Notes under the pieces: model-generated
Databases searched by the model: none
What the model saw: the letters and a program-made list of their open reading frames with translations, nothing else
What the model was told of the DNA's origin: nothing
Source of the DNA: an uncultured Gemmatimonadaceae bacterium
Lineage (GTDB): Bacteria; Gemmatimonadota; Gemmatimonadetes; Gemmatimonadales; Gemmatimonadaceae
DNA: 64,000 nt
Reading direction: 5' to 3'
Assembly (NCBI GenBank): GCA_963817955.1
Contig: CAWFQK010000002.1
Location: forward strand, 1,088,001-1,152,000
Translations under genes and position numbers: made by a program
Part shown: piece by piece, positions 32,686 to 34,140 of the stretch
How positions within the stretch are numbered: position 1 is the stretch's first letter
Layout of the letters: the number at the start of each line of letters is the position of its first letter

Positions 32686-32837
32686 AATACGCGCTTCCCT
32701 CTTCCGTACGCTTACAGTTCTCTCCTGCAGTTCTCTCGCAGTTCTCTTGCAGTTCTCTGCGTCCTCTGCGTTAAAAGCTGTTCTATCGGTCACCGAGATC
32801 CTTCGCTTCGCTCAGCAACTGTCTTGAAAGTCAAGGA

Positions 32838-33809
32838 TTAGACAACGGGGATTGGCGCGGCAGTGAGGTGCCAGGGCGTGTTGGTCCGGACCATGGCGTT
32901 CAGGATCGTGAGGAGTTTGCGCATGCACGCCACGAGCGCCACCTTGGCGGGTTTGCCGGCCGCTCGGAGACGAGCGTAAAACACCTTGAGCGCGGGGTTA
33001 AATCGCACGCCGACGAGGGCACCCATATAGAGAATGTTGCGGACGGCGGCCCGGCCGCCGCTGATGTGGCGACCGCCGCGGCGCCGACCGCTATCGTCGG
33101 CAAACGGCGCGACGCCGACCAGCGAGGCGATTTGCTGGCGGCTCAGGGTGCCGAGTTCCGGCAACAGAGCGATGAGGGTGAACGAAATGCGCGAGGCAAT
33201 CCCCGGCGTGCTCTGGAGGAGAACATCCCGTGCGCACCACATCGGACTCGCTTCGATCGCGCGCTGCAAGTCAAGCTCGACCTGCCCGAGCTCGCGTTTG
33301 AGCCAGTTGATGTGCACGTCGAGCCGGCGTTGGGTCGGCGCACTCACCAGGGCTCGCCGATTCTGCTCGGCGGTGATCATGTCGACGAGCTGGCGGCGCC
33401 GCAGCACCTGCTCGGTCACCGCCCGCTCCGCCTCGGTGGGAGCGGTCGTGGCCGGCCGCAACTCCGGCCGCACACGCTCGGCGAACAAGGCGAGAAGCGC
33501 CGCGTCCAGGCGATCGGTCTTCGCAAGCCGACCGATCGCCTTGGCAAACTCGCGCACGTGGCGCGGATTGACCACCACCACGGGCAAGCCGGCGGCCGAG
33601 AGCGTTGCCACCGCCAGCCGCTCGTACCCGCCGGTCGCCTCGAGCACGATCAGCGTGGGCGCCAGCTGCTTGAGAATGGGCACGAGCGCGGTGAGACCCG
33701 CATCAGCATTCGCGACGACCGACCGCAACTCGGCCAACGGCCCCGCGCTGGTGCGGCCCGCCACGTCGAGCGTGCGCAGACTCACGTCAATCCCAATAAA
33801 CGATTCCAT
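32838..33809 (-). CDS. IS110 DEDD recombinase B (~323 aa)
   Basis: [53 protein letters not shown]. Confidence 0.97.
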
Positions 33810-33864
33810 GTGCGCCTTGATGCCCCCACCAAGAATGGTCAACCAGTGAACCCCAGATGCCTGC

Positions 33865-34045
33865 GGGCGATCGACGTGGCCCAACCTTGCGTTAATTCGG
33901 GGTGATCCCCGGCCAACTGTTCGGGCTCTACCGATCTGAAACGGGGTGGCGCTCCGGCTGAGCGACGGCCTCGAGGACCGCAGGATGAACGAGCTACCAC
34001 CCCGACCAGCCATCCAATTTACGGGCGAGACTTAGTGATTCTCAG
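33865..34045 (-). ncRNA. Putative bridge RNA of IS110-B (ends approximate)
   Basis: Target loop (33943-34003) with TCATCCT and TCGCTCAG; donor loop (33869-33936) with ACAGTTG and GCAAG; each loop has an inner hairpin and a closing stem. Confidence 0.9.
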
Positions 34046-34140
34046 AGATACAAGGATGACAGACAATTCGCCCACTCATTTCCGCGAAGACCCCCCTCTA
34101 GGGTAGACGCGCCGGTGTCACCGGACCTCCGCGAAGGTCA

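Follow-up and report, generated by a model that had tools for sequence, protein, structure and literature searches.

The window analysed here, a 64,000-nt stretch of DNA from an uncultured Gemmatimonadaceae bacterium, contains an insertion sequence (IS) of the IS110 group, which lies on the minus strand and occupies 1237 bp between two CT core dinucleotides (32816–34052). Read along the minus strand, the locus opens with a left target half (LT), GTCATC (34055–34060), which is part of a flanking repeat, and with the CT core copy of the left junction (34053–34054). The element itself starts with a non-coding left end of 243 nt (33810–34052), which begins with the right donor half TGTAT and is predicted to encode a bridge RNA, and continues with a recombinase gene (32838–33809; frame 32841–33809) encoding 323 aa plus stop, and with a right end of 22 nt (32816–32837), in which a −35-like TTGACT (32834–32829) is followed by the left donor half ACAGTTG (32822–32816). 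Beyond the right end lie the CT core copy of the right junction (32814–32815) and the right target half (RT), GAGCGA (32808–32813), which opens the GCGAAGC hairpin and the body of a repeat resembling a miniature inverted-repeat transposable element (MITE). The left junction reads ...ctGTCATC-CT/TGTATCTC... (34060–34046, with the element side beginning TGTATC), and the right junction reads ...ACAGTTG-CT/GAGCGAAG... (32822–32806, with the flank beginning gagcga, to 32808). The long left end and the short right end, 243 versus 22 nt, are accompanied by a core dinucleotide that both junctions share in place of a duplicated target, and inspection by eye revealed no long terminal inverted repeats.

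The boundaries of the element were determined by comparing 32780–34100 with the window's own genome (9 contigs, 4.53 Mb). The flanks match dozens of other places in this genome, and the matches always stop at query position 48 or resume at query position 1286. At one uninterrupted site (G000:C7:63959–64049), both flanks are contiguous and overlap by exactly one CT, indicating that the element comprises the 1237 bp between the two CT cores. The comparison thus confirms independently the bounds of the target GTCATC-CT-GAGCGA and of the donor junction ACAGTTG-CT-TGTAT, which a preliminary description of this DNA had reconstructed. The search revealed one full-length copy in the genome and one further trace, a 72-nt remnant of the left end that is 100% identical (C7:126283–126364) and whose left junction, ctgtcatc-CT/TGTAT, also matches. 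The remnant therefore records an independent insertion, and at least two insertions have occurred at the same left target.

The recombinase gene encodes, as judged by homology, an IS110-family recombinase of the DEDD plus Ser type. Specifically, Pfam PF01548 (DEDD_Tnp_IS110; E 8.1e-24) identifies the N-terminal RuvC-like DEDD domain, and PF02371 (Transposase_20; E 3.5e-15) identifies the C-terminal Tnp domain with its catalytic serine. The NCBIfam model NF033542, 'IS110 family RNA-guided transposase', scores 213.5 bits (cutoff 140), and residues 4–315 match the solved structures of ISCro4 (9t56; E 8.2e-39) and IS621 (8wt6; E 4e-34). When a two-residue chain offset is allowed for, residues D8, E57, D99, D102 and S240 are aligned opposite IS621 residues D11, E60, D102, D105 and S241, which are described as the composite active site of that enzyme (PMC11208158). 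Together, these matches bear out the earlier assignment to the DEDD plus Ser recombinases. The ATG is preceded, at a distance of 5 nt, by AAGG. A longer frame of 391 aa, which appears in the open reading frame listing and spans the RNA region, was rejected as unsupported; the homologue alignments start at residues 1–5. Relatives of the protein are found at 22 loci in one-genome-per-species contigs, and 36 of 201 genomes of the same order contain a match at E ≤ 1e-40. The closest related element is in a metagenome-assembled genome (MAG) labelled Gemmatimonadaceae, and the host genome of the present element is GC-rich (63–65%).

The published rules for IS621 (PMC11208160, PMC11208158) state that the left target guide (LTG) has the sequence of the top strand of the left target plus core and that core plus right target, reverse-complemented, gives the right target guide (RTG), with donor guides built alike. 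By these rules, a candidate for each of the four guides is present in the left end. The putative LTG is GUUCAUCCU (33982–33990), the last 7 nt of which equal LT (5 nt) plus CT, while the putative RTG, UCGCUCAG (33958–33965), is the reverse complement of CT+GAGCGA at 8/8 positions. The putative left donor guide (LDG), ACAGUUG (33914–33920), repeats the terminal 7 nt of the right end, and the putative right donor guide (RDG), GCAAG (33886–33890), can pair with CT-TGT via one G-T wobble; a further AU upstream of the RDG, in AAUUAAC (33897–33891), may pair with the AT of TGTAT. Direct reading of the minus strand places the corresponding DNA words, TCATCCT (33988–33982), TCGCTCAG (33965–33958), ACAGTTG (33920–33914) and GCAAG (33890–33886), and the stem words GGGGTGG (34003–33997) and CCACCCC (33949–33943), exactly where the preliminary description had located them. 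When the 243-nt left end was shuffled 100000 times, the LTG word appeared together with the RTG word in 2 cases and the complete set of four guide words in none; the product of the single word frequencies is 1.1e-7. Furthermore, both handshake bases follow the rule described for IS621 (PMC11208158): in the target-binding loop (TBL), a C at 33957 can pair with the G at donor position 7 but not with the C at target position 7, and in the donor-binding loop (DBL), a G at 33885 can pair with the C at target position 7 but not with the G at donor position 7.

The guides are located in two predicted RNA modules. The TBL module (33942–34004, minus strand) has an outer stem formed by 34004–33997 and 33953–33942, which contains the two stem words given above, and a hairpin at 33979–33966. 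When segment 34006–33940 is folded alone, the minimum free energy structure (−32.6 kcal/mol, z −2.78) consists of the outer stem, a 9-nt loop GUUCAUCCU, the hairpin, and a 10-nt loop containing UCGCUCAG. The DBL module (33879–33926, minus strand) is obtained by folding segment 33929–33876 alone (z −2.13) and has an outer stem GCCCGA/UUGGGC and an inner hairpin (33911–33898). Folding of 33810–34052, which had been proposed as a check, thus recovers both modules taken separately but not the stretch as a whole: the complete 243-nt left end is no better folded than shuffles (z +0.45), and its first 177 nt are likewise undistinguished from them (z −0.62). Because the whole left end folds like shuffles, single-sequence folding energy is weak evidence here.

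Comparison with homologues provides stronger evidence for the RNA. In nearly all homologues, TGTAT is found 181–300 nt upstream of the gene start. We aligned 33 homologous left ends (alignment A1), leaving out L073 (unpublished genome), L043, L079 and L082 (left ends too long), and six elements in which no left-end start was located (L034, L039, L044, L045, L059 and L081); no claim is based on the unpublished genomes G077 and G090. TGTAT is invariant in 33/33 of the aligned left ends. RNAalifold, applied to this alignment, predicts two modules, each of the form stem, internal loop, hairpin, with 22 consensus pairs in total. Eighteen of the 22 pairs show compensatory changes, i.e. at least one sequence in which both sides are altered and the pair is kept. 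The TBL pairs with compensatory changes are columns 88–98/144–153 and 113–116/128–131, and the DBL pairs are columns 177–180/246–249 and 193–196/226–229. The upstream end, for which a bridge RNA with two stem-loops had been claimed, is therefore predicted to encode a two-loop RNA, the stems of which covary in homologues.

An Rfam scan of 30000–36000 matched no bridge-RNA family; its sole match, on the strand opposite to the element, is sX15 (RF02234), whose 35.4 bits fall short of the gathering score (55). The match spans 33859–34016 on the plus strand, antisense to the predicted bridge RNA, and the sX15 model consensus includes the reverse complement of GCCCGAACAGUUG, i.e. of the donor-guide region. 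The original paper describes sX15 and asX7 as transcripts complementary to each other and counts 10 homologues in one Stenotrophomonas genome (PMC3300014). Because the match is antisense, because the consensus corresponds to the reverse complement of the donor guide, and because sX15 and asX7 are complementary, the Xanthomonas small RNA sX15 may perhaps be the antisense of an IS110 bridge-RNA region, the locus having been read on the wrong strand; in four homologue loci, sX15 was not recovered at E ≤ 0.01. In a separate case, one Gemmatimonas-labelled MAG contains two related copies, L034 (L034:1412–1500) and the complete L041 (L041:1287–1491). The left end of L034 comprises only ~80 nt, owing to a deletion that begins just ahead of the LTG and extends beyond the DBL, and L034 may be an RNA-less copy that would rely on its sibling in trans.

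If the guide assignments are correct, guides should change together with the DNA that they match, and this covariation of guides with flanks had been set beforehand as a test. On the donor side, 30 of the 38 elements with a located left end have a second copy, downstream of the gene, of the 7-mer found at the LDG position; 9 different 7-mers are represented, and the second copy is followed by CT in 29 cases and by CC in 1. The 8 misses are made up of 4 elements that lack an LDG candidate under the pattern used and 4 that lack a downstream match, and some of their contigs end near the gene. On the target side, exact-run matching proved too crude for LTGs, and ungapped best-match counts on aligned loop segments were used instead. 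The LTG matches its own flank at a mean of 6.34/9 positions (29 elements), compared with 4.80 for all cross pairings, and the RTG matches its own flank at a mean of 7.29/9 (28 elements), compared with 5.48. When flanks were reassigned by permutation, 0/5000 permutations reached the observed sum for either LTG or RTG, a count that overstates independence because kin share guides and targets. The handshake bases behave likewise: the TBL base pairs with donor position 7 in 28/28 homologues, including a switch to U where the donor has A, and the DBL base pairs with target position 7 in 29/32. In a further group of elements (L035 at its left flank, L040, L064–L066, L069 and L076), the RTG and LDG fit the flanks while the left flank fits the LTG poorly (3–5/9); these poor fits may reflect secondary rearrangements of the left junction or insertion sites matching one half.

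Closer relatives give a sharper picture. In the metagenome contigs scanned, the 17-mer that bears the LTG is matched exactly at 69 loci, 19 of which have the bridge scaffold and are bona fide elements, the other 50 being chance matches without a left-end start. In this same-LTG clade, the left flank ends in GTCATCCT in 16/16 readable cases. In 12/12 elements for which both RTG and right flank are available, the two match at ≥7 positions out of the first 8, with an exact run of ≥7 in 11/12. These 12 elements carry 8 distinct right-target 8-mers (GAGCGA, GAGGAG, GAAGGA, GAGGCG, GAGCCG, GAGGCC, GAGTGA and GAGCGC following the core). Own pairings of the clade RTGs average 7.25/8, versus 5.62 for 120 cross pairings between different right targets, 18 of which reach 7. 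Thus, in the sequences compared, guides track flanks across homologues, and the test proposed in the preliminary description gives a positive result.

The same results bear on the possibility that the guide–flank matches are chance similarities in a GC-rich untranslated region. The shuffle-like fold of the left end as a whole would be expected under that reading, but the four guide words never co-occur in the shuffled left ends, and the covariation in homologues, which involves the RNA stems, the guides with their flanks, and the clade RTGs, is not produced by chance similarity; we regard the reading as refuted and assign it practically no weight.

The 14-mer target GTCATCCTGAGCGA occurs in the 4.53-Mb genome as 113 exact copies, 216 copies with ≤1 mismatch and 329 copies with ≤2 mismatches, in two contexts. 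The first context is 19–20-bp tandem arrays, e.g. five units at C1:176965–177045. The second is the tip of a larger repeat, GTCATCCTGAGCGAAGCGAAGGATCTC..GTGACCGATAGAACAGC..., for which 49 tips could be aligned over ≥40 nt. This larger repeat is a non-coding, MITE-like element of ~430 bp, with eight inverted tip pairs 362–679 bp apart, terminal inverted repeats of ~110 nt, and a body of ~240 bp that is found at >40 places with 82–93% identity. The preliminary description had called the target a repetitive extragenic palindromic (REP) repeat. The high-copy motif stands, but it forms the tip of the MITE-like repeat or the unit of the tandem arrays, and its hairpin is no better than shuffles; 'REP' is acceptable as a loose label, and 'tip of a MITE-like repeat' is more exact.

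The copy of the MITE-like repeat in the window lies at 32539–32815 and about 30800–30870, and another example is at G000:C2:806729–807152. Its arms carry GCAGAGAACTGCA-type short repeats, its conserved core of ~200 bp contains a hairpin (GGTGGAATGA...CATTCCGCC), and the 19–20-bp tandem arrays of the target unit often precede a MITE-like tip. Rfam matched no family to the copy in the window, and a literature search for the repeat core CTGAGCGAAGCGAAGGATC returned no match.

The tip contains a small palindrome, ATCCT-GA-GCGAAGC-GA-AGGAT, in which the crossover CT constitutes the final two bases of the 5′ arm. The site could be chosen mainly through reading of the repeat hairpin by the protein or through DNA structure, with guide matches being secondary, comparable to the added 'structural gate' reported for ISPpu10. 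The core CT is indeed positioned at the foot of the predicted ATCCT..GCGAAGC..AGGAT hairpin, and a preprint on ISPpu10 describes a target stem-loop as an extra specificity determinant (bioRxiv 10.64898/2026.03.19.712850). However, the predicted hairpin (−4.8 kcal/mol with DNA parameters) is no more stable than that of shuffles (z −0.24), and the RTG of the clade changes with the right target (8 distinct right targets, matched in 12/12 elements), a change that a fixed structural reader would not need. We therefore consider site choice mainly by structure very improbable, and site choice by the guides is the interpretation followed below.

On the model of IS621, excision of the element would yield a circle in which right end and left end are joined at ACAGTTG-CT-TGTAT. 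In the circle, TTGACT of the right end, a −35-like element whose distance to the right core is 13 nt, would come to lie upstream of TATCTC of the left end with a spacing of 17 nt, and transcription from this reconstituted promoter would yield a bridge RNA of roughly 160–180 nt. The DEDD plus Ser recombinase would bind the bridge RNA, and the circle junction would be held by ACAGUUG and GCAAG of the donor-binding loop. Insertion at GTCATC-CT-GAGCGA, the motif with 113 exact genome copies, would then follow from strand exchange at the CT core. For transcription, circle formation, RNA binding, chemistry and present-day activity, IS621 serves as the model. That excision reconstitutes a promoter is a published idea (PMC11208160). 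A −35 matching at ≥5/6 positions is present at a fixed distance from the right end in 20/30 homologues; the −10 hexamers are poor throughout, matching at no more than 4/6 positions. The public sequencing runs listed include no RNA run, and in the contigs of three DNA runs, 32700–34200 was covered by fragments only, and an empty-site or circle joint was not among them.

Considering the evidence together, we conclude, with a probability of about 0.82, that the element is a structurally intact, IS621-like member of the IS110 group within the IS110 family. Apart from the candidate promoter across the circle junction, every defining feature of the group that can be tested on sequence appears to be present. 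'Intact', a word already used in the preliminary description, holds in a limited sense: it covers the open frame, the catalytic residues and the guides, and recombination activity at the present day is suggested by analogy with IS621.

Several observations weigh against this conclusion. Besides the unexceptional fold of the left end as a whole and the kinship behind the permutation counts, there is a single full copy in the genome despite 113 perfect targets. The four guides do match flanks and termini as claimed, but the LTG pairs over 7 nt rather than 9, since its comparison with TGTCATC-CT gives 7/9 matches with the two distal positions mismatched, and the LDG leaves the core uncovered, with a G at position 8 and the core C unpaired. 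The −10 at the junction, TATCTC, matches TATAAT at 3/6 positions, and a consensus scan of the integrated copy found neither a promoter nor a terminator; a promoterless integrated copy fits, as weak evidence, a promoter that is reconstituted by excision.

Part of these observations would be explained if the element were a genuine IS110 bridge element that is now inactive or barely active, i.e. a dormant single copy that has kept its anatomy only through recent insertion. The one full copy versus 113 exact targets, the weak −10, the LDG without core pairing, and a spacer between DBL and ATG that is unusually long relative to homologues are all compatible with dormancy. On the other hand, the frame is open with all five catalytic residues present, the four guides and both handshake bases fit, and the 100% identity of the remnant implies at least two recent insertions. 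Furthermore, the G at LDG position 8 was dropped as a defect: it is the commonest base at this position in the clade (9/17 members) and is also found in L063. Dormancy is thus unlikely, although it is the most serious of the alternatives, and a structurally intact element remains our preferred interpretation.

The element resembles IS621 of E. coli, another member of the IS110 group, in many respects. These include the aligned DEDD plus Ser set, the CT core, the long left and short right ends, an RNA with two loops, TBL and DBL, pairing of the handshake bases with the non-cognate DNA at position 7, and a high-copy genomic repeat as target, 144/173 IS621 insertion sites being reported in REPs (PMC11208160). 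The core and right donor half of the present element together, CT-TGTAT, are the same as dC8–dT14 of IS621 as listed among the pairings in PMC11208158, and the RDG of IS621 shares ...GCAAG, the same G-T wobble, and the discontinuous upstream AU. The differences are quantitative. The element is distant from IS621 by protein sequence (E 4e-34) and resides in a GC-rich host; its target is GTCATC-CT-GAGCGA, versus ATCAGGC-CT-AC for IS621; its LTG is 7 nt, versus 9 nt, and its RTG 8 nt, versus 4 nt; left donor positions 6–7 are TG, versus AT; and, unlike in IS621, the LDG does not pair with the core C and the DBL hairpin is shorter.

Other members of the family offer partial parallels. The transposase of ISCro4 is the best solved-structure match (PDB 9t56, see above), a comparison made on the protein alone. 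ISPpu9 and ISPpu10 of Pseudomonas putida are described as bridge-RNA-guided IS110-family elements in repetitive extragenic or conserved intergenic stem-loops (PMC12288879; bioRxiv 10.64898/2026.03.19.712850), and it is by these descriptions that we liken them to the present element; the structural gate in the target is reported for ISPpu10. An IS110-family element of another subgroup also has its preferred site in the terminal repeat of another mobile-looking element; its guide RNA, however, is in the right end and it has long sub-terminal repeats, whereas the host repeat here is the ~430-bp non-coding MITE-like element.

The biology is therefore expected, because bridge RNAs are predicted for most IS110 elements (85.7% of those in ISfinder, with longer RTGs in some orthologues; Durrant et al., PMC11208160), because REP targeting has been published for IS621 and the P. 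putida elements, and because the protein is annotated as an RNA-guided transposase. The present analysis is an unusually complete reading of an ordinary member of the bridge recombinase systems described in 2024. It adds a natural pair of bridge RNA and recombinase that is fully resolved, down to all four guides, the two handshake bases and the two junctions; the pair comes from a GC-rich lineage distant from E. coli and has a natural 8-nt RTG. The clade is worth more than the single element: with the left guide fixed, right guide and right target co-vary, 8 right-target 8-mers being represented among 12 elements, and this natural reprogramming series could inform guide design.

The remnant on C7 (locus L002, G000:C7:126283–126364) has an unusual end. 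Its last bases are precisely the CT of the segment coding for the LTG (GTTCATC-CT). A left target half in inverted orientation follows head-to-head, GATGACAGG... (GATGACagg...), and with it comes the outer flank that normally borders the MITE-like repeat (gggacacgggatgcct, reversed). The arrangement looks like the result of a loss of everything between the internal half-target and the far tip, namely the remainder of the element together with a whole MITE-like body. An internal half-target of this kind is present in every such element, since the LTG reproduces left target and core in sequence; if it synapsed with the inverted tip of the neighbouring repeat, both the remainder of the element and the body of the repeat would be deleted. 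The remnant could thus be the footprint of 'half-match' recombination, guided by the LTG only, at the element's own guide-coding DNA (for half-match recombination, compare bioRxiv 10.64898/2026.08.31.748434), an explanation that we offer tentatively and consider rather doubtful. If it were true, bridge elements could destroy themselves by way of the guide sequence that they carry, and scars of this kind would be natural records of recognition by the LTG only. The LTG-ending remnant is a single case. A palindromic empty site, CTGTCATCCTGATGACAG, was found nowhere else in the genome; five related genomes contain no LTG-truncated remnant, one partial left end in G003 ending after the TBL; and among the non-element metagenome matches there is no parallel remnant with a left-end start upstream.

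A second, different IS110-family element, also present as a single copy on the minus strand, is located at about 30871–32538 (frame 30908–32347; NF033542, 151.2 bits). It sits at a CT within the same MITE-like copy, its junctions reading ...TTTAGTT-CT/TCCGCTG and ...CAGATAG-CT/CTGCAGTT. No counterpart of an LTG or RDG was found in it. Its left end contains CTGCAGAG (32408–32401), which is the reverse complement of CT plus the right flank, and CCTCAGATA (32363–32355), which equals the last bases of its right end. The genome contains 43 occurrences of AGTTCTCTGCAG and 46 of GTTCTCTGCAGTTC, two target-like words. Finally, at the L041 locus, an ALIL pseudoknot (RF01497, 80.7 bits), a frameshift element of the IS3 type, is present at L041:3149–3265, ~700 nt downstream of the related IS110 element.

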